56,022 bases of DNA, taken from the IMG/VR virus record IMGVR_UViG_3300018005_000018, positions 1 through 56,022 of that record. One strand, 5' to 3'. The notes under the pieces were generated by a model, which searched no databases, was not told where the DNA came from, and worked only from the letters and a program-made list of their open reading frames with translations. The translations under genes were made by a program, and so were the position numbers. Below are positions 20,960 to 40,228 of the stretch, in pieces (positions within the stretch are counted from its first letter, which is position 1; every line of letters starts with the position of its first letter). The stretch is from a virus (lineage: Duplodnaviria; Caudoviricetes).

Positions 20960-21790
20960 TTAAACATCACAATAATCCGTGCAGTTTCCCCAAAGTGTTC
21001 CTTGATTTTCATTAAAATTCACCTCATCAAGAGGTAATAATGAATCATGTAAATATATCTTCGATGTGATTCCTTTCATACTTGAATCCCTAATTGCCTT
21101 ATCAACCTCAACGGCTTTCTCAAAATCAGAAGAAACAGTTGTTTTCAAACGAATCCAATTCTGATCTGACTGAAATGGACAAAAGACACATGAAGATTTC
21201 TCTGGGATTGGCAAATTATGTTCTTTATACCAATTTAAAACGTCATTTCGAGACATTATTTCTGAGTCAATCTTAATACATTTTCCATCAGGATAAACCT
21301 TATATCCACAAAACGGATAAACATTAATCTTCCATCCCTCTTGCGGTATGTTCATTCTGGTTGCTTCATCAACTGTTATGCCTTGATAAATTTCTATTTT
21401 AGGAAAGCGCGATTTTCCTTTTAAATCAAGTGTCTCGCGGATTTTTTTATTAACCTGCATAATCTTATATTCAGGTGTGCATTGCCTCCGTAACATACCT
21501 TTCTTGTTATCGTTTATTGTAAAGGCTGGAATGGGTGCAAATCTATTGCCTGATGAATTAGATTGATTCAATAAATCATTTTGAAGATTTTTATAACTGG
21601 CTTTATGTAAAGTAATACCATTATTTTCGGTCATCCATTCAATTAAATAATTATAATATTCAATGGTTTTTGTTTTCTCTCCACCTGTATCTGCAAATAT
21701 AGCATGATCGCATCTTTCTATTTCTCCCATTGAACTCATGTAATATAATGCAGAACTCTGCACCCCTACTCCTAAACTGATTATTTTCAT
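20960..21790 (-). CDS. PAPS-reductase-like (adenine-nucleotide alpha-hydrolase superfamily) protein
   Basis: ISLGVGVQSS, IFADTGGE, RQCT, KSSCVFCPF, terminal CxxxC. Confidence 0.8.
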   Translation of the reverse strand: MKIISLGVGVQSSALYYMSSMGEIERCDHAIFADTGGEKTKTIEYYNYLIEWMTENNGITLHKASYKNLQNDLLNQSNSSGNRFAPIPAFTINDNKKGMLRRQCTPEYKIMQVNKKIRETLDLKGKSRFPKIEIYQGITVDEATRMNIPQEGWKINVYPFCGYKVYPDGKCIKIDSEIMSRNDVLNWYKEHNLPIPEKSSCVFCPFQSDQNWIRLKTTVSSDFEKAVEVDKAIRDSSMKGITSKIYLHDSLLPLDEVNFNENQGTLWGNCTDYCDV

Positions 21791-21791
21791 A

Positions 21792-23084
21792 TCAATTATG
21801 CACAAAGAGTGCCTTGTTTATCCCAACAACTCTTAATCCTCTCCTACTACATTCCGCAGCACATTCCTCGGCAAAGGCTCCATCTGCCTGTTCATGTTCG
21901 TGGTTGAATCCCACTGCCTTTGCCACATCCATCCTTGTGATGAATGAACCCATGTCAATGTAGCATACCTGTACTCTTGTCTGAAGTATATCATATCCCA
22001 TGTAGGAATGAATGGTATTACAATAGACCATACCTACATCTGGCTGACAGCTATTTATAAAAAACTCCACAAATGGTTGTATATACTCGTTATCGTCATT
22101 TGTAATCAATATAAAATCAGTTGGCTCTCCCTGTACCTCCTGTACCATCATCTTACGGTTTGGGAATCCCCATTTGCCATTTACTTGCGGAGTTGATCTG
22201 AAGTTTAGTCGTGCATCATTGAATGACTTTGCAAGAAAGGCTGTAAGTTCTATTGGTGCCGGACCATCGTGAACAATGTTCATAGTCCAGTTTGGGTTTG
22301 TCTGACAAAGAAAATCCCAGATAAGCCTTGCGAGTTGTTGTGATCTTTGATACACTGTTACAATAACATGAATCTTCATATTGCGGTTTCTTTCGTAGTT
22401 ACTTCGTGGATAGGTTACATCGAAATGCCCTTTTCCTTCGGTCAATAGCTTTCTAATGTTCAATCCCGAGTTATGAAACTCGAATGCCCTGACGTTTGTA
22501 TTAGAGCCAACCCAGAACTCCCTGTGATACCTCCAATCTGACTCCAGATAACCATGATTAAGTGTTTGCAGGTATCTTGTCTTTGCCCACCAGAAGTTGC
22601 CAGAGAAGTGAGGAAAATAGCCTATTGGCGTGTCTTGGTTCCAGAGGATGCCACAACAGTCATATCCGAGATCGAGTTTAGTCACACAATCTCTCCAGTT
22701 CTCAATATTAAAATATTCCATGTACCTGCGCCAGTCTTCGGTAGCCGGTGTACATTTAGTCACGCTTTTTGTATGGAAGTAGAACACATAATCATCGGGA
22801 TTAACCATGGAATAGTCTCTTACCCATTTCAGGGTGTTAGCCTCTTCGTTATTGTTTGGATGAACAACAATCTCAACCTTGTCTGAATCTTTCCATATAC
22901 CCTTTACCCATTCAATACCGTTCTCCGGTGATTTGCCCGGGTGATCGGTGATACCAATGTACAACTTACTGCAAGCATTAAATAATCCGAATTTGATAAG
23001 ACTGTCAAACTGACTAAGCATCATGGTCTGGTAATATGGTCCCGCCATAAATACATGATATGCTATGATAATTTTTTTTGTCAT
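21792..23084 (-). CDS. Two-domain glycosyltransferase: RgpF-like (HTK...GNFWW) domain plus GT2/GT-A domain
   Basis: YFHTKSVT...WRRY...HFSGNFWW; then IHVIVTVYQR...VHDG...TNDDN...IDMG. Confidence 0.75.
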   Translation of the reverse strand: MTKKIIIAYHVFMAGPYYQTMMLSQFDSLIKFGLFNACSKLYIGITDHPGKSPENGIEWVKGIWKDSDKVEIVVHPNNNEEANTLKWVRDYSMVNPDDYVFYFHTKSVTKCTPATEDWRRYMEYFNIENWRDCVTKLDLGYDCCGILWNQDTPIGYFPHFSGNFWWAKTRYLQTLNHGYLESDWRYHREFWVGSNTNVRAFEFHNSGLNIRKLLTEGKGHFDVTYPRSNYERNRNMKIHVIVTVYQRSQQLARLIWDFLCQTNPNWTMNIVHDGPAPIELTAFLAKSFNDARLNFRSTPQVNGKWGFPNRKMMVQEVQGEPTDFILITNDDNEYIQPFVEFFINSCQPDVGMVYCNTIHSYMGYDILQTRVQVCYIDMGSFITRMDVAKAVGFNHEHEQADGAFAEECAAECSRRGLRVVGINKALFVHN

Positions 23085-23818
23085 TTCTTTGCTACGAATA
23101 ATAGACAATCTCCGTGTGGTGTAGGCTCAACCATTTTTGTCATTATGCTTTTAAACCCGGCATCGAGAAAGCATCGCATCATCTCCTGTGGATACATCCA
23201 AAATGCTGTTTCGTTTAGACTTGCGCAATATTCTTCGAGGGTGTTTCTCAAATTTCCCCAGAACATCACCTTGCCTAAATATGTCTGTCCCATTGCCTCT
23301 ATATGACTTTCCTCCTTACATGGGTATTCAGCACTAGCTACCTGCGACCATACAAATACCATGTCTGTAATTTTTGCCATGTCGTAGATTAGTTGTGCGG
23401 GGTTTGTCTGATGATACAAAACTCCAAGTGCAGTCACCACATCAAATTTATCTCCCTTGTAGTTTGCTACATAGTTACAGAAGTCTCCAAATACAAACTT
23501 AGCTTTCATTAGTTGAAATGCCTCTTTGACTATCAGACATCGCATAAAACAATCGGAAAGTCCCTCTATACTTATGACCTCCTTTGCACCACGATCTACC
23601 ATCATTTTAGTATGTGCTCCCTCTAATGGCCCTAATTCAAGTATGTATTTCCCTTTTACATCGCCAACTGTCTCTATAAGCCATGTCAGATATGGACTCG
23701 TCTGCCACATCGCTGTGCCTCCGACCAACTTACCATTTATCTCAAACTGAGTAGTCCATCCTTTCATAATGGCAAACATAGATTCAGGAGAACAGTCTGT
23801 GCCAATTATTGTATTCAT
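23081..23818 (-). CDS. Class I SAM-dependent methyltransferase
   Basis: ILELGPLEG motif I, FDVVTALGVLYH. Confidence 0.85.
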   Translation of the reverse strand: MNTIIGTDCSPESMFAIMKGWTTQFEINGKLVGGTAMWQTSPYLTWLIETVGDVKGKYILELGPLEGAHTKMMVDRGAKEVISIEGLSDCFMRCLIVKEAFQLMKAKFVFGDFCNYVANYKGDKFDVVTALGVLYHQTNPAQLIYDMAKITDMVFVWSQVASAEYPCKEESHIEAMGQTYLGKVMFWGNLRNTLEEYCASLNETAFWMYPQEMMRCFLDAGFKSIMTKMVEPTPHGDCLLFVAKK

Positions 23819-24330
23819 AGTATTCTACTTATAACATTGAGGTTTGCAAACTCCCCAAATAATTCTTTTGCTGCGTTATTATAAGCAATTGCAGCAAGTT
23901 CTTCAGTTGCAAATGAACCCAATCCTTTGCGTTTTTTATCTATATTTATATAAGCAGTTATTGTCTTATATTTCTTTTGCTTATCATTCTTGCCTCTTAC
24001 AAAACTGACGCAAACTCCCTTAAATCTTGACTTACCCCAAGAAGTTTTATTTTGTTGATTTTGAGAATTTGTGCATAATCTTATATTATATTTTTGATTA
24101 TTCAACCCATTATGATCTTCATGATCAACCTGTACTCCTTGTGTAGCATTAAGTATTTCCCTGTGCATTTGAATATTTGGTCTCTGTTTGCCATTTAAAC
24201 GCCCATTATATCTTGTTGCATAATAAGTATTTCTATGTTTTCTGGCGAACCATTTCCATTGCATGAGGAAATCATAATTATCATCATCTACTAATGCGAT
24301 CTTACCTTGTGTTAAATGAATTTCTTTCAT
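23815..24330 (-). CDS. HNH-AP2 homing endonuclease
   Basis: MKEIHLTQGKIALVDD, MHREIL, VDHEDHNGLNNQKYNIR, FKGV...LGSF...AAIAYN; ATG 24330 preferred. Confidence 0.9.
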   Translation of the reverse strand: MKEIHLTQGKIALVDDDNYDFLMQWKWFARKHRNTYYATRYNGRLNGKQRPNIQMHREILNATQGVQVDHEDHNGLNNQKYNIRLCTNSQNQQNKTSWGKSRFKGVCVSFVRGKNDKQKKYKTITAYINIDKKRKGLGSFATEELAAIAYNNAAKELFGEFANLNVISRIL

Positions 24331-24432
24331 TGTACCAATATTTAAAAGAATGTACCAAAAAATGTAGTGAGAAAGAGTTGGTACTTCTCCTTTCATCGGG
24401 CAATTACCCCCGACTATCTCACCACAAAGATA
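24331..24432 (-). promoter_or_regulatory. Promoter plus structured RNA leader of the HNH-AP2 gene
   Basis: TATCTTTG (24425-24432); GTGGTGA/TCACTAC, TCGGG/CCCGA and GAAAGGAG/CTCTTTC stems; loop GTACCAA complementary to two downstream TTGGTAC. Confidence 0.55.
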
Positions 24433-24443
24433 TAAATTATTTT

Positions 24444-25655
24444 TCATTTACCTATAACGGATATATTCGGAAACATCACAATAAACTTACCAGAATACTG
24501 CCCTTTTAAAGAATCAATAATGTAGTCTTTGAAATTATGTGCGAGAATAAGTATATAATCGGGCTGAAAGGCTTTTAATGATTCCCGACTGATAACTTCA
24601 ATACCTGTTCCTGGCACGAACTTGCCCTGTTTGAACGGAGTGTCATCAATGATGAAGGGGATCATATCATCATTTATCCCACAGCTATTAAGAAACACAC
24701 ATCCTTTCGCTGCAGCACCAAAACAAACAATCGTCTTATTTATTGCCAAAAGATCATAAATGAATTTACGAAATGTCTCTATTTTCTCGTGTGTTCTCTT
24801 TCCCCATTTGACACAATATTCCTCGGTAATAGTTTTTTCCAGATTAAGGAATGACAATATTGTGCTATCAGGATATCTGTATGATGATTCTTTTACACTA
24901 AGCACACGTAATGTCCCTGCGTGCATATCGTGATATGATACATTAACAACCCTTAATCCTTCCTGTGCCAATAGATCAACAATATTTTTCAAGCAATAAT
25001 AATACACATGTTCATGATAAATCTGGTCATAGTTATCATTTGCAAGCGTTGTGAGGATATATGGAAATTCCAGACACCATACACCCTCATTTGATAAATT
25101 CCTCTCTACACCTCTCACAAATGAACGAATATCGACAGTATGCTGAAACACGTTTGTTGATGTTATTAGTTTTGCTTTATATGGTAATCTTGTTTGCGAA
25201 TCAAAATAAATATTCAGATATTCGATGCCATTCTCTTTGTTAATATCAATAAAACTTTTGCTACAATCCACGTTCACATAATGCAGATTACAGTTCTCTT
25301 TGCGGAACTCCATAAGGAGACTACCGTCATTGCCTCCTATGTCCACCACCAAATCTTTATCTTTGAAGTTCACATGACGGGATAAGTAGTCATACATTTT
25401 TGCACAATGATCAAGATAGGGTTTGTTAACTCCCGACTTATAGAGATAGTTTAGAAACATATCATCTTTATTGACAACATCAGTCAAACATATTAACCGG
25501 CTCTCATGGAAGAATTGTATTGCCAATGGGAATCTCTGACAAGCCAATGATTCTTTTTTTGTATCACAGAAATTATTCACCAATGGTACAGTCCCAAGAT
25601 TAAGAAATTCTACTCGTTTTATACTACCGGATATGGGACATGAATCAATCTTCAT
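24444..25655 (-). CDS. NDP-hexose C-methyltransferase (NovU/TcaB9-like)
   Basis: LGTVPLVN, VDIGGNDG, TNVFQH, YHEH, FGAAAKG, KQGKFVPGTGI motifs. Confidence 0.9.
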   Translation of the reverse strand: MKIDSCPISGSIKRVEFLNLGTVPLVNNFCDTKKESLACQRFPLAIQFFHESRLICLTDVVNKDDMFLNYLYKSGVNKPYLDHCAKMYDYLSRHVNFKDKDLVVDIGGNDGSLLMEFRKENCNLHYVNVDCSKSFIDINKENGIEYLNIYFDSQTRLPYKAKLITSTNVFQHTVDIRSFVRGVERNLSNEGVWCLEFPYILTTLANDNYDQIYHEHVYYYCLKNIVDLLAQEGLRVVNVSYHDMHAGTLRVLSVKESSYRYPDSTILSFLNLEKTITEEYCVKWGKRTHEKIETFRKFIYDLLAINKTIVCFGAAAKGCVFLNSCGINDDMIPFIIDDTPFKQGKFVPGTGIEVISRESLKAFQPDYILILAHNFKDYIIDSLKGQYSGKFIVMFPNISVIGK

Positions 25656-26554
25656 TTCAAATAATCTTTATAATCAGTTTCAATATAATCCCTAAGTGCG
25701 TCTTTCCATGGTCGCATAATATTAAGTCCACGCAAATCGAGTTTTTTATTAACAAGATTTTCAAATACCGGACGGATAGATGTGTATTGCTCTGCAAAAT
25801 ATTCCGAGTCCACAATGTTTATCTTGACACTTTTTTCCAGATGTAATATCTTCAATATTTCCCATGTTATGTCGAGTCTTGATGTCACACCCTTGCAAAC
25901 CATGTTGTAAAGACCATACATACCCGTTTCAATAAGGAGACTCACATTCATGGCAAAATCTTTTGTGTATGTCATAGTGCCTCCCCTGTCATTCACAATA
26001 GTCAGTTCTTTTGCTCCGTTTTTTAGTTGTGACATGATCTTCTGTACAAACTTTTTATCTTTTGTCGGGCCACCCCCAACCATCCATCCGGCCCGACAAA
26101 CATAATATTTTCTAGCATATTCAATGACAAACCTCTCTCCTGCCCATTTTGACCTTGCATAGACATCAAGAGGATTAGGTATGTCCCAATCATCACAAAG
26201 TTCTTTTGTCCCATCAAAAATGCCTGCTGTACTGATATACAGGATTGGTATATTGAGTGCATTGGCAATACGAACAGCATCTTCCACAGCGAGTGTGTTT
26301 ACTAGATATGCCTCATCAGGATTGGCTTTACAGAACTCCAGATCGGTATATGCTCCGAGATGGAAAAGATAATCTGGTTCAAAATTAAAAACATCATTTC
26401 TATAAGCCTGCAGTCGGCGAAAATCCAAAAATCTTAACCATGGTTCATTAACATTCTTATCAGTGCATCGCAGATCATAATCGTTATTAAACCAATGATA
26501 GAATGCATCTCCAAGCATACCGCCACATCCACTAATGTAAATTTTTTTCTTCAT
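25652..26554 (-). CDS. rmlD: dTDP-4-dehydrorhamnose reductase-like SDR
   Basis: GCGGMLG, AYTDLEFC, YISTAGIFDG, YARSKWAGE (YxxxK). Confidence 0.85.
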   Translation of the reverse strand: MKKKIYISGCGGMLGDAFYHWFNNDYDLRCTDKNVNEPWLRFLDFRRLQAYRNDVFNFEPDYLFHLGAYTDLEFCKANPDEAYLVNTLAVEDAVRIANALNIPILYISTAGIFDGTKELCDDWDIPNPLDVYARSKWAGERFVIEYARKYYVCRAGWMVGGGPTKDKKFVQKIMSQLKNGAKELTIVNDRGGTMTYTKDFAMNVSLLIETGMYGLYNMVCKGVTSRLDITWEILKILHLEKSVKINIVDSEYFAEQYTSIRPVFENLVNKKLDLRGLNIMRPWKDALRDYIETDYKDYLK

Positions 26555-27482: not shown

Positions 27483-28120
27483 CTTGTTTTTTTTATTGAT
27501 ATTGGTGATTTACCTTCTTGCATTGCCTTTGCTATGTCCTCGGGTCGTAATGCTAACCTCTCGTTTTCCATATACCTCAAAAGTTCATCTCTCAGATAGG
27601 GGTTGTTATCTTCATTGAGTATTTCCAGAAGCGTTTCTTCTAGTTCTGTCTGTGCGTTTCTTGCATCAGGAATTTTTCTTGTCTCCCCCCCAATTATCTG
27701 AAGCATCAAAGTATAATAACTCTCATCCATTGCCACAAGATATGCGTATTTATAGTTACGGTGCATTCTCACATAAGTACAAATCTTTTTATTTACCTTT
27801 TCATTTTTACCCCTTAGAAAATCCTCAATTGGCGGTGCAAAGTTTCCTCCCTCTGCCGTCTCAAAACCACAATCATGAGCTACCTCTATTTTCCTTTTCA
27901 GAACATCATTGTATTTTTTCCTATATGGAGATCCTTTGTCGTACATACAGAGGACATAAAGCATAACCTTATTATCGTCAATGTCTTCCCCTGCAGTTGC
28001 TTTAAACTCCCTTATCTTACCCAAATCTTTGTAAAATGACAATACCGATGTACCTTCCGGTATCTTATCAACATTGTACATCATTGACTGAAACTCCTTA
28101 CCGTGAAATTGGCTTTTCAT
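27479..28120 (-). CDS. Conserved protein, possible terminase small subunit-like
   Basis: YVLCMYDKGSPY motif, helical C-terminus; upstream of terL in the same gene run; assignment positional only. Confidence 0.35.
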   Translation of the reverse strand: MKSQFHGKEFQSMMYNVDKIPEGTSVLSFYKDLGKIREFKATAGEDIDDNKVMLYVLCMYDKGSPYRKKYNDVLKRKIEVAHDCGFETAEGGNFAPPIEDFLRGKNEKVNKKICTYVRMHRNYKYAYLVAMDESYYTLMLQIIGGETRKIPDARNAQTELEETLLEILNEDNNPYLRDELLRYMENERLALRPEDIAKAMQEGKSPISIKKTR

Positions 28121-28806
28121 TATATTCTGGCGAATACGTTCCTGCGTTGAATCCTAAATAACTTCACTCCATCATTAACCTTCATATGCAACTCATATTG
28201 CATCGGTATATCCGATACTTTCTTTGAGATGATAATATCACCAACCGCAATATCCACTCCCTCATCTGTATGGTCATCCTCAGTGTATCTTCTATTTGGA
28301 TTGCCGAGATATTTGACACGGCTATACACAACATTTGTGATACTGTTTTTTCTAAGCATGACAAACTTCATCCCGATCTTTTCCATACGTGCTTTTTCTG
28401 CTGTTATTGCAGGATCTTCTACAGACTCAGTAAGTACATATCCGTTTATCGGAATTAACCGTCCCTCTCTCACAACAGCATATATCCGGTCATAGGGAAT
28501 AAGAACAAACCGATCTTCACCCTCATACACACACCTGGGGTCTTTTTTATTGAGCGCATTGACTACGCTTAGATAGTAGATGATCACCTTATCACCATAT
28601 CTTAACTCCATATCGCAAAGCCATGGCATCCCGAGATTAGCTTTTCCCGTATATTGCAGATGACTTGGAACGCCATAAACTTCACCTTCCACGGTACAAT
28701 GCATCTCTGGGTTGTAGCTCGTGTCTATGAACAATCCCCTGACCATTGTGTTTTCAGGATCGAGTTTTATCAAGACGAGATTGTTAAGAGTTTTTTTCCT
28801 GTCCAT
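28120..28806 (-). CDS. Tandem GroES-like double-domain protein
   Basis: LNNLVLIK...GEVYGV...LRYGDKV and PINGYVL...VKYLG...IAVGDII repeats; TAATG-coupled start. Confidence 0.7.
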   Translation of the reverse strand: MDRKKTLNNLVLIKLDPENTMVRGLFIDTSYNPEMHCTVEGEVYGVPSHLQYTGKANLGMPWLCDMELRYGDKVIIYYLSVVNALNKKDPRCVYEGEDRFVLIPYDRIYAVVREGRLIPINGYVLTESVEDPAITAEKARMEKIGMKFVMLRKNSITNVVYSRVKYLGNPNRRYTEDDHTDEGVDIAVGDIIISKKVSDIPMQYELHMKVNDGVKLFRIQRRNVFARI

Positions 28807-28982
28807 TAGTCTAACTCTCCTTTCTTCCATCCAATATACCAACAGAACTTAATCCAATGAATAAAAAAAAGCTTAAACCCTTTTTCAATTCTTATATCAA
28901 AATAAGGATATTTCTTCTTTTCATTCATGTCTGTGCAGATATGCATAAACCCGTGCCGTCCTATAAACTTATGCTTTTCCAT
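28806..28982 (-). CDS. Hypothetical protein
   Basis: Short coupled ORF MEKHKF... Confidence 0.45.
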   Translation of the reverse strand: MEKHKFIGRHGFMHICTDMNEKKKYPYFDIRIEKGFKLFFIHWIKFCWYIGWKKGELD

Positions 28983-29286
28983 AATCTTTATTTTTAATAC
29001 ATATCCACTTTCCATCTATCATCTCAAACCTGATCAGTCCTTTTTTCTCCTGAATCTCAAAACGTTTTGCCATGCCTCTCTTATCTTTTCTATTCATGGC
29101 GTTCCATAATTGTAGCTGATTAATACGTAAATTAATCTTCTGACCATTATACTCGATCACAACATAGTCATTAAACATCTGTTCTCCCATAACTCGTATT
29201 GGCTTTTCTTTTGGTGGTTTAGAAACTGGTCGTTCCCAAAATAAGTACTTCACCCATTTAAAAAATTTTATTATCTGCTTATTCAT
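28969..29286 (-). CDS. Hypothetical protein
   Basis: 105-aa ORF heading the packaging gene run. Confidence 0.6.
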   Translation of the reverse strand: MNKQIIKFFKWVKYLFWERPVSKPPKEKPIRVMGEQMFNDYVVIEYNGQKINLRINQLQLWNAMNRKDKRGMAKRFEIQEKKGLIRFEMIDGKWICIKNKDYGKA

Positions 29287-29311
29287 AGTGCAATAAATTT
29301 ATAAAAAATTA

Positions 29312-29512
29312 TCAATCTGGAAATTTCTTTTTATTTTCTCTTCTTGTTGCTGCAGTTGCTCTATTGTCTCGAAAAACCCTAAATGCCACTCTCCCTTTTT
29401 CTATTTTAAAATCCATCTTATGAACAAGGCCACAATCACAACAACATATTTTATATCCTTCCATTATTGGGAATATCCATTCTCCGGCTTCTGGTTCATT
29501 ATATTTTGCCAT
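29312..29512 (-). CDS. Small Cys-rich protein (CCDCGLVH type)
   Basis: GEWIFP...CCCDCGLVH...RDNRAT. Confidence 0.7.
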   Translation of the reverse strand: MAKYNEPEAGEWIFPIMEGYKICCCDCGLVHKMDFKIEKGRVAFRVFRDNRATAATRRENKKKFPD

Positions 29513-29535
29513 AATTATTTTATCAGTTGAGGTAC

Positions 29536-29620
29536 AAAAACCCCATGTACTCGACATGGGGTCGCACTACTATGAAAAACAAGAAAGCAGACCTGTTGGC
29601 AAACAGGCGATTCAAAGATA
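29536..29620 (-). ncRNA. Candidate ~75-nt small RNA: promoter, 5' hairpin, anti-start-codon segment, terminator
   Basis: TATCTTTG 29613-29620; CCTGTT/AACAGG hairpin; GTTTTTCATAGTAG; ACCCCATGT/ACATGGGGT + TTTT. Confidence 0.55.
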
Positions 29621-29647
29621 ATCTATTTTTGCTTCTTGTTTCCATTT

Positions 29648-30163
29648 TTATTCTTCAGGTAAGTTGTCTAAAAAAATTTGTCTTTCTTTTTCGTATTGGA
29701 TTTCTGATTCAGAAAGAGAAATTTCTTTTTCTTCTTCTTTTTCTTTATTTATTTCTTTATCTTCTTCTATTCTTATACTTCCTGCCGTCTGCTTGCCGTC
29801 TGCTTGTGCTTCTGCCTGTACGTCTGCTTGTGAAATTGGATTATAAATATCATATTTACAAAGTGTTAGTATTGTCGTTTTCCATGCCGTTGTGGTTGCC
29901 ACTTGTTGTTCACTTTTTAGTAAGTTAATGAATATCCGCACTTTATGAATTGACCAATTCCATCTCTTTGACAAAAATGAATAACTTACAGGATATTGAC
30001 CTCTTCCCCATTTTATTATTACTCCATCTATTAATTTTTTATTATCTATTGTAAATGATACTAACTGAATTAAATCTATCCATGCTTCTGCTCTACTATA
30101 TTCCCTATTCTCTTTCCAGAAGTTATGATCAAAGAGTTTTCTATTAATGCGAATGAAGGCCAT
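29648..30163 (-). CDS. Phage replisome-organiser-like N-terminal winged-helix protein
   Basis: FIRINRK...EAWIDLI...RGQY...LSKRWNWS...TLCKYDIY. Confidence 0.7.
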   Translation of the reverse strand: MAFIRINRKLFDHNFWKENREYSRAEAWIDLIQLVSFTIDNKKLIDGVIIKWGRGQYPVSYSFLSKRWNWSIHKVRIFINLLKSEQQVATTTAWKTTILTLCKYDIYNPISQADVQAEAQADGKQTAGSIRIEEDKEINKEKEEEKEISLSESEIQYEKERQIFLDNLPEE

Positions 30164-30194
30164 TTAACATTTGTAATTTCAATTATAAAAAAAA

Positions 30195-30377
30195 TTACTC
30201 TATTCCCAATCTTTTAAGTTTAGTCAGTTCTTCAACTGTGAAGAAGTTATCCTTTAATCTTTGAGCAAAAGTCTGCCGAGTAATGCCGAGCTCTGCAGCC
30301 ATCTCTATTTGAGTCTTGCTGTTTCGATTCATCCAGATAAGTACCTTCTCTGATGTTTTTATTATTCTGGTTTCCAT
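30195..30377 (-). CDS. Cro/XRE-family HTH regulator
   Basis: TQIEMAAELGITRQTFAQRL; TATATTTG box at 30438-30445. Confidence 0.8.
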   Translation of the reverse strand: METRIIKTSEKVLIWMNRNSKTQIEMAAELGITRQTFAQRLKDNFFTVEELTKLKRLGIE

Positions 30378-31120: not shown

Positions 31121-31987
31121 TCATATCTTATTTTTTACACAAAATTGATCAACTCTGTCAAATAGTTCCCTGTCTTCATCACGAAGTCTTAACCACACCC
31201 TGGCCATATAGCCTTTGTCTTTTTTAAGTGTTCCCCATAGATGGGTGTATTTTCGTTTCTCATTATTACCAACTTCCATAGCATCAGGATTGATGACCTT
31301 AACCTGATCGCGCCATCCATGCTTCTTGATGAGACAGGCAAGGAAATACTGTTCATGGAAGAGATTCTGGTGCATGAGCATATCTTTTTCTTTCTCAAAG
31401 AATACTTCCTGATTAGCTGGTGCGAAGATATATTCCGCACTTGTCTTTCGCCATTCTTCGAAGATGCTCAAATCATTGCCACCACATATTCCACAGTTAT
31501 AGGCAAAGTCATCCACAGGGTTGTCGCATATGTCCTGTGGCTTCACCGGAGCCCTGCCCCAACACTTTTTAAGCATGTTATAATACTGATAACCATCGGC
31601 ATCGAAAGGCTCGTGTGACTGAAAGCATAGTTTGGCATTAAGAATACGTGGTGCCAGGGCATCCCAGAGAAACACGTCATTGTCGATATGAACAAACGGC
31701 TTGGTCTGTTCACAGTAAGCAAGTAGTTTGCCGTATGCCCAGAAATGACGATCAACGCTTTTCATCTCATTGAGCTTATCGGAATAGCTTGTGATGGGAA
31801 GTTTTAGTTGAGTGATAACATCGACACCCCAATTGGAAGAAATAAACTGCACCTCCTTAAAATGACGGGAGGCGCAGAGTACTGAGAGTGCTGTGGTAAA
31901 GAGAAAATCGCTATACCTGGTGAATCCACATTTATTGCCGAAGGATTCATCGGGGTTAAAATAGCTGAATACTGCTTTCCTGATCAT
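31121..31987 (-). CDS. DUF6734-like DxD nucleotide-diphospho-sugar transferase
   Basis: FWAYGKL...PFVHIDNDVFLW...YNCGICGG...EQY...YTHLWG. Confidence 0.7.
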   Translation of the reverse strand: MIRKAVFSYFNPDESFGNKCGFTRYSDFLFTTALSVLCASRHFKEVQFISSNWGVDVITQLKLPITSYSDKLNEMKSVDRHFWAYGKLLAYCEQTKPFVHIDNDVFLWDALAPRILNAKLCFQSHEPFDADGYQYYNMLKKCWGRAPVKPQDICDNPVDDFAYNCGICGGNDLSIFEEWRKTSAEYIFAPANQEVFFEKEKDMLMHQNLFHEQYFLACLIKKHGWRDQVKVINPDAMEVGNNEKRKYTHLWGTLKKDKGYMARVWLRLRDEDRELFDRVDQFCVKNKI

Positions 31988-31999
31988 AGTTACGGAGTG

Positions 32000-34803: not shown

Positions 34804-35040
34804 TTACAGATTAATAATGATACATTCCAATTCTGCCTCAAATATTGCCTGCTCTTCTGCATCTTCAGCGCATAGCGGGCACAAATTAACGTCTAAAGGA
34901 TGTATTATCCCTTCTTCAATTAGCATCTCCAATTCTTTCGAGATCGTGAACCAGGTTCCGCAATTTGCGCACTTGGCTTGCTGTCCTTTGAATAATTTAA
35001 TTAATTCGCTGGTCTTTAGTGGTTTTCGTGTGTTTTTCAT
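34804..35040 (-). CDS. Zn-finger hypothetical protein
   Basis: CANCG...CPLC; TAACTTTG at 35064-35071. Confidence 0.6.
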   Translation of the reverse strand: MKNTRKPLKTSELIKLFKGQQAKCANCGTWFTISKELEMLIEEGIIHPLDVNLCPLCAEDAEEQAIFEAELECIIINL

Positions 35041-35063
35041 ATCGTTTATATTAATTAACAGAT

Positions 35064-35519: not shown

Positions 35520-35975
35520 ATGGAAACTTACAAGAGCAAAATGCCGGAAATAAAACTAATCCTCAAAAAAGGAGAGGTCTTGAAATGCAAGATCAAAGAA
35601 AGCAAGGACGCTGCCGATTTATTTCGGCAGATATGGGATAAAGACAGTTTAGAATTATACGAAAGTTTTATTTGTATTTATCTTAATCGAGCAAACAACA
35701 CAATAGGATGGTTAAAAATAAGTCAAGGGGGACTATCGGGGACAGTCACAGATGTAAGGCTAATTTTAGCAACTGCCTTGGGCTGTGCTGCATCTGGTAT
35801 GATTATGGCACACAATCACCCTTCAGGCAATATTAATCCTTCTGATTCTGATTCTAAAATAACACAAAAGATTAAAGAAGGTGGTAATATTATGGACATT
35901 CAGGTTTTAGATCATATAATATTGTCAGGCGAAAATGAAGACTATTACAGTTTTGCGGATAATGGATTTATTTAA
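35520..35975 (+). CDS. radC: RadC-like JAB-domain protein
   Basis: E...LNRAN...GGLSGTVTD...AHNHPSGNINPSDSD...LDHII. Confidence 0.92.
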   Translation: METYKSKMPEIKLILKKGEVLKCKIKESKDAADLFRQIWDKDSLELYESFICIYLNRANNTIGWLKISQGGLSGTVTDVRLILATALGCAASGMIMAHNHPSGNINPSDSDSKITQKIKEGGNIMDIQVLDHIILSGENEDYYSFADNGFI

Positions 35976-36057
35976 TGTTTTTGCCCGTTGCAAGTCGGGA
36001 CAATACAGAGCACTCCGGCAAATAACCGGAGTAATGTAAACCAAAAACACACGCATT

Positions 36058-37530: not shown

Positions 37531-37559
37531 AAAAACACACTTAACCAAATCTAAGCAAT

Positions 37560-38108
37560 ATGAAAAACTTACTTTTGATTATCCTTCTCTGCGGTGCTTC
37601 CCTTGCTTCCGGCAATTCTGACTATCATACATTGTACATTATTCAAGTTCATGGTATAATAAAACCAATTGATAAAGTGGATGTTCAGTTTAAACTATTT
37701 GCGAGCCATTTAAGCCTCATTGAGTCCTCAAATGATTGGAAGGTCGTCAATAGCCTTGGAATGATAGGAAAATACCAGTTTAGCCCTGCTACGCTTGAAA
37801 TTCTCGGATACCACAACATAACTCCCGAAAGATTTAAAGCCGATCCGTCTATTTTTTCGGAAGCAATGCAAGAACAGGCTTTGCAGGATCTCATAAAAAA
37901 TAATCAGAACTCACTTAAAAAATTTGCTTCCTATATTGGTCAGGTGATCAATGGAACACTTATCACAAAAGCCGGGCTTCTCGGAGCTGCTCACTTAGCT
38001 GGTGTCGGGGGTGTTCAGAAGTTTCTCACAAGTGCTCACAATGCCACAGACTGCAATGGTGCATCTGTACAACGATATTTAACAGAATTTCAAAATTTTA
38101 ACGTATGA
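37560..38108 (+). CDS. Lysozyme/transglycosylase-like protein with N-terminal hydrophobic signal
   Basis: IESS (catalytic Glu) ...GKYQF...AAHLAGVGGV; MKNLLLIILLCGASLA. Confidence 0.75.
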   Translation: MKNLLLIILLCGASLASGNSDYHTLYIIQVHGIIKPIDKVDVQFKLFASHLSLIESSNDWKVVNSLGMIGKYQFSPATLEILGYHNITPERFKADPSIFSEAMQEQALQDLIKNNQNSLKKFASYIGQVINGTLITKAGLLGAAHLAGVGGVQKFLTSAHNATDCNGASVQRYLTEFQNFNV

Positions 38109-40001: not shown

Positions 40002-40211
40002 TTATTTATTATATAAATTCAATAAATTATCTACTAAAAGGAATGCTTCTACTGTATAATTTCTTGTAATATTATCATTTAGAATTTGATCATGCAATTT
40101 CTCTTTTGCACATTTTAGTTCAAATATCAATTTTTTTGACGGTTTAGACATGGGTTTGTGGAGTAAATAATATGCCTTTATTAACCATATAAATTTTTTC
40201 AGCTTTTTCAT
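40002..40211 (-). CDS. Hypothetical protein
   Basis: 69-aa ORF. Confidence 0.5.
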   Translation of the reverse strand: MKKLKKFIWLIKAYYLLHKPMSKPSKKLIFELKCAKEKLHDQILNDNITRNYTVEAFLLVDNLLNLYNK

Positions 40212-40228
40212 AGTATAGTTTTTAAATT

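Follow-up and report, generated by a model that had tools for sequence, protein, structure and literature searches.

The 56,022-base virus record IMGVR_UViG_3300018005_000018 (Duplodnaviria; Caudoviricetes) was analysed over its whole length and is referred to here as the window. It has a completeness estimate of 76%, and the majority of its genes lie on the minus strand. A short unit composed of a promoter box (P1), a 5' hairpin (H1), an exposed pyrimidine-rich region and a second, GC-rich hairpin (H2) is located on the minus strand between two genes of the same strand. We consider it likely that this unit is a stand-alone gene for a phage small RNA of about 75 nucleotides (nt), which would pair in trans with the mRNA of a nearby gene encoding a DUF6734 protein (gene A) and repress it. 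The unit itself is conserved, its two hairpins covary, and a complementarity with the DUF6734 mRNA in three blocks is conserved with it. The features of the locus are listed below.

29648-30163, minus strand: DnaD-like helicase-loader gene, the upstream neighbour of the unit (PHROG E 3.3e-13)
29620-29613, minus strand: P1, the -7 promoter box TATCTTTG, with a predicted transcription start at G29608
29608-29591, minus strand: H1, the 5' hairpin GCCUGUU-UGCC-AACAGGU, with six Watson-Crick pairs, one G-U pair and the loop UGCC
29590-29564, minus strand: exposed U/C-rich middle region CUGCUUUCUUGUUUUUCAUAGUAGUGC, containing the core CUGCUUUCUUGUUU and then CAUAG
29563-29539, minus strand: H2, the GC-rich hairpin GACCCCAUGU/ACAUGGGGUU, with the loop CGAGU and 10 pairs by RNAfold
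29563-29534, minus strand: H2 plus the U run UUUUUGU, a likely intrinsic terminator and RNA 3' end
Likely ATG at 29512, minus strand: small Cys-rich open reading frame (ORF), the downstream neighbour of the unit
31121-31987, minus strand: gene A, 288 amino acids (aa), Pfam DUF6734 (PF20508, E 2.4e-41), the proposed primary target

The promoter, hairpin, unpaired segment and terminator described by a first-pass annotation of this DNA are all present on the minus strand; its terminator hairpin is there too, with 10 pairs by RNAfold in place of the nine that it counted. For the 75-nt RNA with ends at 29608 and 29534, the folding energy is -24.9 kcal/mol (z = -3.52), a value reached by one of 200 shuffled sequences. 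H1 begins four bases after the box TATCTTTG and was given seven pairs by a consensus terminator scan, which listed H1 and omitted H2. It is the counterpart of a family stem of 5-9 bp with the 7-nt loop AUGCCGA, which reads UUGCCAA in the window. The stretch between the hairpins includes UGUUUUUCAUAGUA and forms the pairing region in the predicted duplexes. The RNAfold structure also contains a weak middle hairpin, CUGCU/AGUAG, which could present UUCUUGUUUUUCAU as a loop. No Rfam 15 family reached its gathering threshold for the unit: for 29450-29700 (E up to 10), the best row had 21.7 bits where 54 were needed, and no row had an E value below 0.46. ARAGORN detected no tRNA or tmRNA genes in the window.

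The -7 box of the primary sigma factor of Bacteroidota is given in the available portion of PMC6847099 as TANNTTTG, refined to TAHHTTTG with T-12, A-11, T-8, T-7, T-6 and G-5, and the same -7 consensus appears in the corresponding portion of PMC9723704. The box TATCTTTG conforms to TAHHTTTG and ends 5 nt before a start at G29608, the first base of H1. In the family of related units described below, an exact TAHHTTTG occupies the P1 place in 18 of 27 members, the remainder having TACCTTTA or TAACTTGG, and the spacing of the box to H1 is 3-8 nt in the members read. No -33 element TTTG was found 15-25 nt upstream of the box in the window; this element is described in that portion of PMC6847099 as much less evident in Bacteroidota. 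The window contains 80 TAnnTTTG sites, 20 of them within the intergenic 13.5% of the sequence, and 12 of these 20 lie no more than 100 nt upstream of a co-oriented start. The bases at -12 to -1 of the called window genes are 37-57% A, and Shine-Dalgarno (SD)-like 4-mers are depleted at -18 to -4: four of 76 genes have one there, and nine of 76 have one in a control window within the gene. A Bacteroidota host is suggested by the promoter box and the SD-less starts. A -7-box-like sequence, TATTTTTG, lies on the opposite strand at 29624-29631 (plus strand) and directly abuts P1; its complement AAAAATAGAT, upstream of P1, is kept in the window, L002 and L008 (our labels for loci), and the pair could represent a divergent promoter or an A-rich upstream element.

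At the other end of the unit, a 10-bp GC-rich stem is followed by UUUUUGU in the window, the arrangement of an intrinsic terminator. Most members have a U-rich tail beyond H2; the tail is poor in L110, L009, L246 and L256, the last two being close relatives of L009. In L110 (3179-3290, equal to G005:6449-6560), H2 is longer (12-13 bp) with the loop GAAA, the U run is absent, and termination appears doubtful. A second exact TAHHTTTG is present after H2, ahead of the next gene, in 12 of the 27 members. In four more (L037, L220, L285 and L202; element L037:624-718 and its equivalents), TAACTTGG serves as the -7 box and a TA(A/T/C)CTTGC directly abuts the U run. The TAnnTTGC of this group resembles TAnnTTGY, an alternative sigma motif of Flavobacterium psychrophilum given in the same portion of PMC9723704. 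The exact second box is missing in 15 of 27 members (11 of 27 if TAnnTTGC is counted), L008 and L110 among them. Because of the second box, the downstream gene would be independent of read-through in most members. This gene also varies from member to member and may be a Cys-rich ORF, a member of a 105-aa family, a 53-aa ORF or an MDFKLDI... protein. A box of its own, a second box and a varying downstream gene together fit a self-contained transcription unit. The downstream gene of the window would need some read-through or another type of promoter.

The unit (promoter-H1-core-H2) was found with a covariance model in 27 distinct phage or metagenome sequences. The model was built from three well-aligned members because MAFFT/RNAalifold on four sequences misaligned H1. 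It was run on pattern-selected viral, metagenome and genome contigs and on the loci around DUF6734 homologues; the loose pattern scan of viral contigs had supplied at least 119 stretches. Matches at E values up to 1 were obtained for 10 among 93 sources, 85 of which were pattern stretches, and for 2 among the other 29. The figure of 27 was reached after removal of duplicates and of three false metagenome matches (L272, L228 and L271), in which the hairpins were absent on reading. The weak matches L160 and L167 in genome contigs were coding sequence without hairpins. L321 (E 0.17), truncated by the end of its contig, was kept outside the 27, and its gene A start was still used.

Loci reached through a neighbouring 240-aa protein, which is only 46-57% identical among them, hold the unit at the same place. 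One copy was found in the window with filters off and one in each of three of five related genomes by the model; in the other two, a single copy was seen in their loci only. No true member was found among 59 pattern-matching stretches from bacterial and archaeal genomes, so that neither a prophage copy nor a host was identified from them. A blastn search of 28900-30300 against phage GenBank records gave no match, a locus search with the DnaD-like gene alone found nothing, and an exact 25-mer from the unit had no match in viral contigs. The true diversity is probably underestimated because the family was gathered partly by its own motifs.

Both hairpins are supported by compensatory changes. 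In the alignment of 27 sequences, which are related and were fitted to the structure in a way that favours the pairing score, 95.4% of 394 cells are paired compared with 61.9 +/- 1.8 in shuffles, and none of 500 shuffles reaches this value. Two-sided changes occur in all 16 modelled pairs: 6/6 in H1, with 91% of cells paired, and 10/10 in H2, with 98%. Sliding the 3' partners by 1-3 columns reduces the paired share to 38-49%, and the two hairpins are also seen when sequences are folded singly, independently of the model. The H1 loop is ATGCCGA in 24 of 27 members, and the core CUGCUUU(0-8 nt)CUUGUU is likewise present in 24, the exceptions being AUGCUUUUCUUGUU, CUGCUUUUCUUUUU and CUGCUUUUUUUGAUCAU. 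CAU follows the core in 20 members and is missing in seven, a finding that speaks against its proposed role as an essential seed. The recurrence of the whole unit in 27 sequences with compensatory stem changes makes it more than a product of chance. In L003 (3385-3420) and other members, a GC(G/A)AG precedes H2 and has two potential partners, CUUG in the core and CUUGC downstream of H2, and alternative structures are possible.

The interactions proposed for the DUF6734 mRNA involve the following sites.

31972-31991, minus strand: proposed target site AACUAUGAUCAGGAAAGCAG on the gene A mRNA, from -4 to +16, with the AUG at 31987-31985
31936-31941, minus strand: UCGGCA in codons 16-18 (UUC GGC AAU, Phe-Gly-Asn) of the DUF6734 gene, complementary to the family loop UGCCGA

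The best start region in the window by RNAduplex is that of the gene 31121-31987, at -25.6 kcal/mol, and the target site lies at percentile 0.0016 among 2452 ATG-centred windows. The genes named as targets in the first-pass annotation were outside the best ten. Its three complementarities do exist, over 12 contiguous bases at 40202-40215 (minus strand), 11 at 35031-35044 (minus strand) and 10 at 37556-37569 (plus strand). Yet the start region of the gene 40002-40211 has a rank fraction of 0.16 (E -14.0) and that of gene 37560 one of 0.42 (E -10.1), and both genes lack homologues in the five related genomes. The crude gene calls did not include the gene at 35040, which is hence outside the start-region ranking.

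The comparative evidence for DUF6734 was obtained from the window and the five related genomes, two of which have terminal repeats and are rated 100% complete. ORFs were called crudely (ATG-only), proteins were grouped, and the RNA of each genome was scored against the start regions of that same genome. Among 30 families present in at least four of the six genomes, DUF6734 has the best start-region pairing in 5/5 genomes holding the gene, with rank fractions of 0.01, 0.02, 0.01, 0.06 and 0.04. Its mean z is -2.81, that of the next family is -1.41, and none of 1000 permutations reaches it. A locus search with the DUF6734 alignment as query yielded 47 loci, and in 19 of these the RNA was detected by the model 0.7-2.6 kb downstream of the gene. 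Cognate RNA-mRNA pairs from 17 lineages have a mean of -19.25 kcal/mol compared with -17.25 kcal/mol for swapped pairs (permutation p 0.0032). Of 16 lineages, nine have a pairing percentile below 1% among ATG-centred windows and 13 have one below 7%. Ten DUF6734 homologues without the RNA within their locus have a mean of -10.0 (Mann-Whitney p 1.7e-5). Three of the loci without the RNA (L330-L332) encode the same peptide, MI(K/E)RAVFSYFNP, with other codons (Ala GCU/GCG, Arg CGG/CGU) and no CUAUG; thus, the protein sequence does not force the complementarity.

The predicted duplex at the start codon is formed by two blocks. Block 1 pairs UCAUAGU of the RNA with ACUAUGA of the mRNA across the AUG (-3 to +4, 7 bp). 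Block 2 pairs CUGCUUUCUU(G) of the RNA with (C)AGGAAAGCAG of the mRNA from +5 to +15 in codons 3-6, which gives 11 bp (CUGCUUUCUUG/CAGGAAAGCAG) in the window duplex; across the duplexes it takes the form of RNA CUGCUUUC(UU) with mRNA (AG)GAAAGCAG. Aligned without gaps, the core block comprises 122 Watson-Crick pairs, 22 G-U pairs and 16 mismatches in 160 positions of 16 RNA-mRNA pairs. Matched changes are found within it, e.g., CUUUC/GAAAG and CUUUUC/GAAAAG. At mRNA position -1, as read from the duplexes, four lineages have a U/A pair, two C/G, one U/G and one a mismatch. A search for the complement of the core, AAACAAGAAAGCAG, with no more than two mismatches gave no second site in the window and background counts in the five related genomes.

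A third block is supplied by the loop of H1, which had been described as a plain hairpin in the annotation that did not list DUF6734. UCGGCA occurs in the gene A mRNA of 15 of 17 lineages: at +46 in eight, the window included, and in the 5' untranslated region (UTR; at -8, -9 or -23) in seven, all of which have lost Gly17. The hexamer is absent from 3/3 close homologues without the RNA, and it occurs between -30 and +60 in 6 of 465 other called genes of the six genomes. In lineages of the window type, the mRNA carries CUAUG, GAAAGCAG and then, about 30 nt on, UCGGCAA, an order that is exactly antiparallel to CAUAG, core and H1 loop in the RNA. In L006, the loop UUGCCGA and the site UCGGCAA give 7 bp. 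The relocation of UCGGCA is the strongest single sign that the RNA contacts the gene A mRNA, as far as sequence comparison can tell.

A second candidate target, gene B, lies a short way downstream of the unit.

28120-28806, minus strand: gene B, encoding a tandem GroES/Cpn10-like protein of about 228 aa (Foldseek match to a tandem Cpn10 chain, E 7e-6)

The listed ORF of gene B (28120-28842) starts at TTG (28842). The real start is probably the ATG at 28806 (MDRKKTLNN), judging from the relatives MNRKLTFNN and MENKRTFNN. The start region of gene B has strong percentiles in L009 (0.002), L110 (0.0027), L291 (0.012) and L043 (0.018), followed by L003 (0.021), L202 (0.030), L004 (0.033) and L037 (0.045), and weak ones in the window (0.25), L002 (0.56), L006 (0.34), L008 (0.26) and L256 (0.25). 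The gene B mRNA of L110, CUAUGAAAC-C-AAGAAAG-ACAU-UCGGCAAU, contains every one of the three blocks, in order. Of 22 gene B start regions, five include UCGGCA, and a CAUUC insertion peculiar to the RNAs of L003 and L004 matches GAAUGA in their gene B. Gene B is probably an additional target in relatives of the phage and not in the window. A 105-aa family gene of the L008 phage (G003:C1:2529-2855) has TCGGCA at +18 and a start-region rank fraction of 0.02 with the RNA of that phage, and it could be a further lineage-specific target.

Structure predictions of both proteins gave fold matches that are only leads because the predicted local distance difference test (pLDDT) score is about 60. The model of gene A (pLDDT 60) has glycogenin, one of the GT8 glycosyltransferases, as its best Foldseek match (E 0.025), and a weak resemblance to the GT8/GT-A glycosyltransferase fold is a lead only. 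The same holds for the GroES/Cpn10 match of gene B. The DUF6734 family is uncharacterised, and a literature search for its name returned no paper.

In the proposed mechanism, host RNA polymerase would start at G29608, five bases past the Bacteroidota-type -7 box, continue through H1, the exposed U/C-rich region and H2, and stop at the U run. H1 and H2 would protect the RNA, which would pair in trans with the DUF6734 mRNA, whose start (31987) lies 2.4 kb upstream on the same strand. Binding at -4 to +16 and at +46 would occlude the start codon. Because SD-less mRNAs need an open, unstructured start region, initiation should be blocked once the AUG and the first six codons are covered by a duplex. 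In this way, the DUF6734 gene would be shut off, with or without decay of its mRNA, by an RNA that perhaps serves as a timer. Transcription, termination, repression rather than activation, and timing are all steps that we infer from the sequence. The unit has what is expected of a trans-encoded small RNA, namely promoter and terminator signals of its own, a conserved seed and a conserved complementarity with matched changes. A more elaborate version is possible, although we hold it rather doubtful: a protein-independent antisense regulator with three contacts would act as a developmental timer, a kissing contact between the H1 loop and UCGGCA would nucleate pairing that then zips over the start codon, and the site would move within and between mRNAs (DUF6734 and GroES-like), so that one RNA is re-wired.

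Several observations weigh against a repressor of DUF6734. Start regions of the window are not enriched for pairing: at or below -20 kcal/mol, 5 of 68 start windows compare with 319 of 9795 internal windows (Fisher p 0.07; Mann-Whitney p 0.61 for start versus internal windows), and stronger duplexes (-28.8 kcal/mol) occur inside genes, so no target can be claimed from the window alone. RNAduplex ignores accessibility, and the gene calls are ATG-only ORFs. The lineages share ancestry and the tests overstate their independence; with only eight lineages, the cognate test gave p 0.07, and the same test for gene B gave p 0.11. Pairing with gene A is poor in L004 (0.255), L323 (0.27) and L326 (0.28), and L322 and L327 have UCGGCA at neither place. 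The window loop UUGCCAA matches its site by only 5 bp (UUGCC/GGCAA), and where UCGGCA lies in the 5' UTR (seven lineages), the blocks do not run in colinear order. In the window, no recognisable second promoter was found after H2. Some read-through past H2 is possible, since several members have only a weak U tract there and L110 has none. All 12 sequencing runs found to contain the stretch are DNA runs, from peat and other metagenomes, and the transcript, its ends and its effect are deduced.

The main rival explanation is that the unit acts in cis, as a leader of the late operon downstream of it. Transcription from P1 would end at H2 unless a phage or host factor recognised the H1 loop and the single strand (antitermination or attenuation, as at nut, put or Q-like sites), and the element would gate a 29-kb co-directional block leading to the terminase, portal and tail genes. 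The unit does directly precede a long block of the same strand (small ORFs, sugar-modifying enzymes, HNH, terminase, portal and tail), and the window, L008, L110 and others have no exact second promoter after H2. An invariant H1 loop with a conserved single strand may also resemble hairpin-plus-boxA sites, and the GCAAG that precedes H2, with CUUG in the core and CUUGC downstream of H2 as its alternative partners, would suit such a switch. However, the exact second -7 box in 12 of 27 members and TAnnTTGC in four more do not fit a gate, nor does a downstream gene that varies while the unit remains constant. Three conserved blocks complementary to the gene A mRNA and the relocation of UCGGCA are left unexplained. 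No NusG-, Q- or N-like protein was recognised among 36 ORFs compared with PHROGs or 11 compared with Pfam, many of these ORFs being without any match. We regard the leader as unlikely. The first-pass annotation favoured broad silencing in trans of AUG-AAA-AA starts, with numerous weak targets in both phage and host. This explanation accounts for the complementarity of UUUUUCAUAG to common Met-Lys starts (ATGAAA opens 17 of 76 called window genes), for the 24 matches of the 14-mer at up to three mismatches compared with 13.57 +/- 3.81 in shuffles (1 of 100 shuffles reaches 24) and for two occurrences of the exact 12-mer compared with 0.04 expected. Against it, start regions of the window pair no better than windows within genes, and the named targets rank poorly and have no homologues in the related genomes. 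CAU is absent from seven members, with CUGCUUU..CUUGUUU and the H1 loop kept, which fits a specific partner, and we give broad silencing a small probability. The idea of a small RNA pairing with start codons was right in kind and wrong in its targets: a discrete promoter-to-terminator mini-RNA whose unpaired part would pair across the start codon of another phage gene is what the comparison of relatives also points to.

Protein binding would explain the loop AUGCCGA, invariant in 24 of 27 members, if the RNA were a decoy titrating a host factor or nuclease. The 7-nt loop on a stem of 5-7 bp could be read as an anticodon-type stem-loop (loop position 2 being U and GCC taking the anticodon position), and S1 or an RRM protein might recognise the pyrimidine tract. 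UCGGCA in the gene A mRNA of 15 of 17 lineages, with relocation, is predicted by an RNA-RNA contact and not by a decoy, and no partner protein was identified; this makes a decoy improbable. An element acting as DNA is more improbable still. The unit follows directly after the DnaD-like helicase-loader gene, and complementarity on one strand amounts to an inverted repeat of DNA, so that a recombination site with the gene A start, or an origin or helicase-loader site with single-stranded DNA hairpins, can be imagined. Yet 22 of the 38 non-Watson-Crick core positions are G-U, which pair only in RNA; the promoter-terminator frame is kept while the upstream neighbour varies; and no recombinase family was found among the 36 ORFs scanned against PHROGs, a scan that did not include a repeat search of the region. 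Other candidates were rejected. A leader peptide would start at the AUG in the H1 loop, and the frames opened there differ in length and phase among members. A mimic of a CRISPR repeat was considered, and no pattern-matching genome stretch had more than one match. A type I toxin-antitoxin system was dismissed because the frame read on the plus strand from 29573 enters the DnaD-like gene in the antisense orientation and is not conserved, and a cis-antisense RNA of the OOP/sar type because the flanking genes are on the same strand and the only opposite-strand frame is not conserved. A translated plus-strand ORF starting in the segment, named at the outset as the finding that would speak against an RNA, is contradicted by frames that stop after 4 codons in L003, 10 in L263 and 18 in L220; the opposite-strand frame has no ATG in the seven of 27 members that lack CAT.

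Comparison with known systems places a trans-pairing repressor closest to the c4 antisense RNA of phages P1 and P7 (immI operon), which we take to be Rfam RF01695, and to trans-encoded small RNAs generally. The c4 RNA, of about 77 nt, pairs through short exposed segments with the translation start of its target, represses a nearby phage gene of the same orientation and is processed from the transcript of the target. The unit would resemble it as a small phage RNA with the orientation of its nearby target and with short exposed segments directed at a translation start. It differs in having its own promoter box and a proposed main target 1.6-3.5 kb upstream, in showing no sequence or structure match in Rfam, and in its probable other host phylum and SD-less starts. 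The lambdoid pR'-tR' 6S RNA with Q and the nut/put sites act in cis on RNA polymerase. What they have in common with the unit is a long late block preceded by a promoter, a terminator and, between them, a short structured RNA; here, in contrast, a further promoter box follows the terminator in most members, and the conserved bases are complementary to an mRNA encoded elsewhere. Lambda OOP (77 nt) and P22 sar (68/69 nt) are described in the available part of PMC12197685 as having their own promoter and terminator and as controlling a phage gene by base-pairing. The unit is likewise a small phage RNA with its own promoter and terminator signals, but OOP and sar lie on the strand opposite to their target and are fully complementary to it, whereas the unit lies on the same strand 2.4 kb away and would pair through three short, imperfect blocks.

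GibS of Bacteroides thetaiotaomicron is a trans-encoded small RNA of Bacteroidota. Another, Rfp18 of Flavobacterium psychrophilum, is reported in the part of PMC9723704 that was available. As far as these accounts go, such RNAs have the same type of promoter, are rich in hairpins and have a conserved pairing region with targets predicted by mRNA pairing. They are chromosomal and regulate host genes, whereas the unit is phage-borne, has a phage gene as its best-supported target and has no sequence relation to them. The unit is probably a new family, outside any described one, and probably encodes a translational repressor. The available text of a 2025 review of phage-encoded small RNAs (PMC12197685) contains no occurrence of Bacteroid* or Flavobacter*, and a literature search combining 'phage-encoded small RNA' with 'Bacteroid' found no paper.

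Two other features of the window were recorded. A type-P3 twister ribozyme, the only Rfam match in the window, lies at 35977-36048 on the plus strand (51 bits against a gathering threshold of 39.9, E 3.7e-8). It starts two bases past a 151-aa 'DNA repair protein' ORF (35520-35975) in an island of plus-strand genes. A cluster of sugar- or nucleotide-modifying genes is situated between the small RNA and the terminase (20960-26554, minus strand).

25652-26554, minus strand: epimerase-like gene
24444-25655, minus strand: C-methyltransferase
21792-23108, minus strand: GT2 glycosyltransferase domain
20960-21805, minus strand: PAPS-reductase-like gene

This cluster and the GT-A-like lead for DUF6734 hint at a glycosylation pathway. 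Since the phages with DUF6734 also carry sugar-modifying enzymes, the RNA may time a glycosylation step.

To our knowledge, phage-encoded small RNAs are described almost only from phages of Proteobacteria and a few of Firmicutes, and Bacteroidota lack Hfq and SD-led initiation. In SD-less organisms, initiation is governed mainly by whether the start region is open. If the reading with three contacts is true, no phage small RNA would have been described before it for a host of the Bacteroidota type. The movement of UCGGCA between the coding region and the 5' UTR offers an unusually clear comparative sign of an RNA-RNA contact, and the family would be a compact natural example of RNA-based translational control in SD-less organisms, with a specific and testable target.

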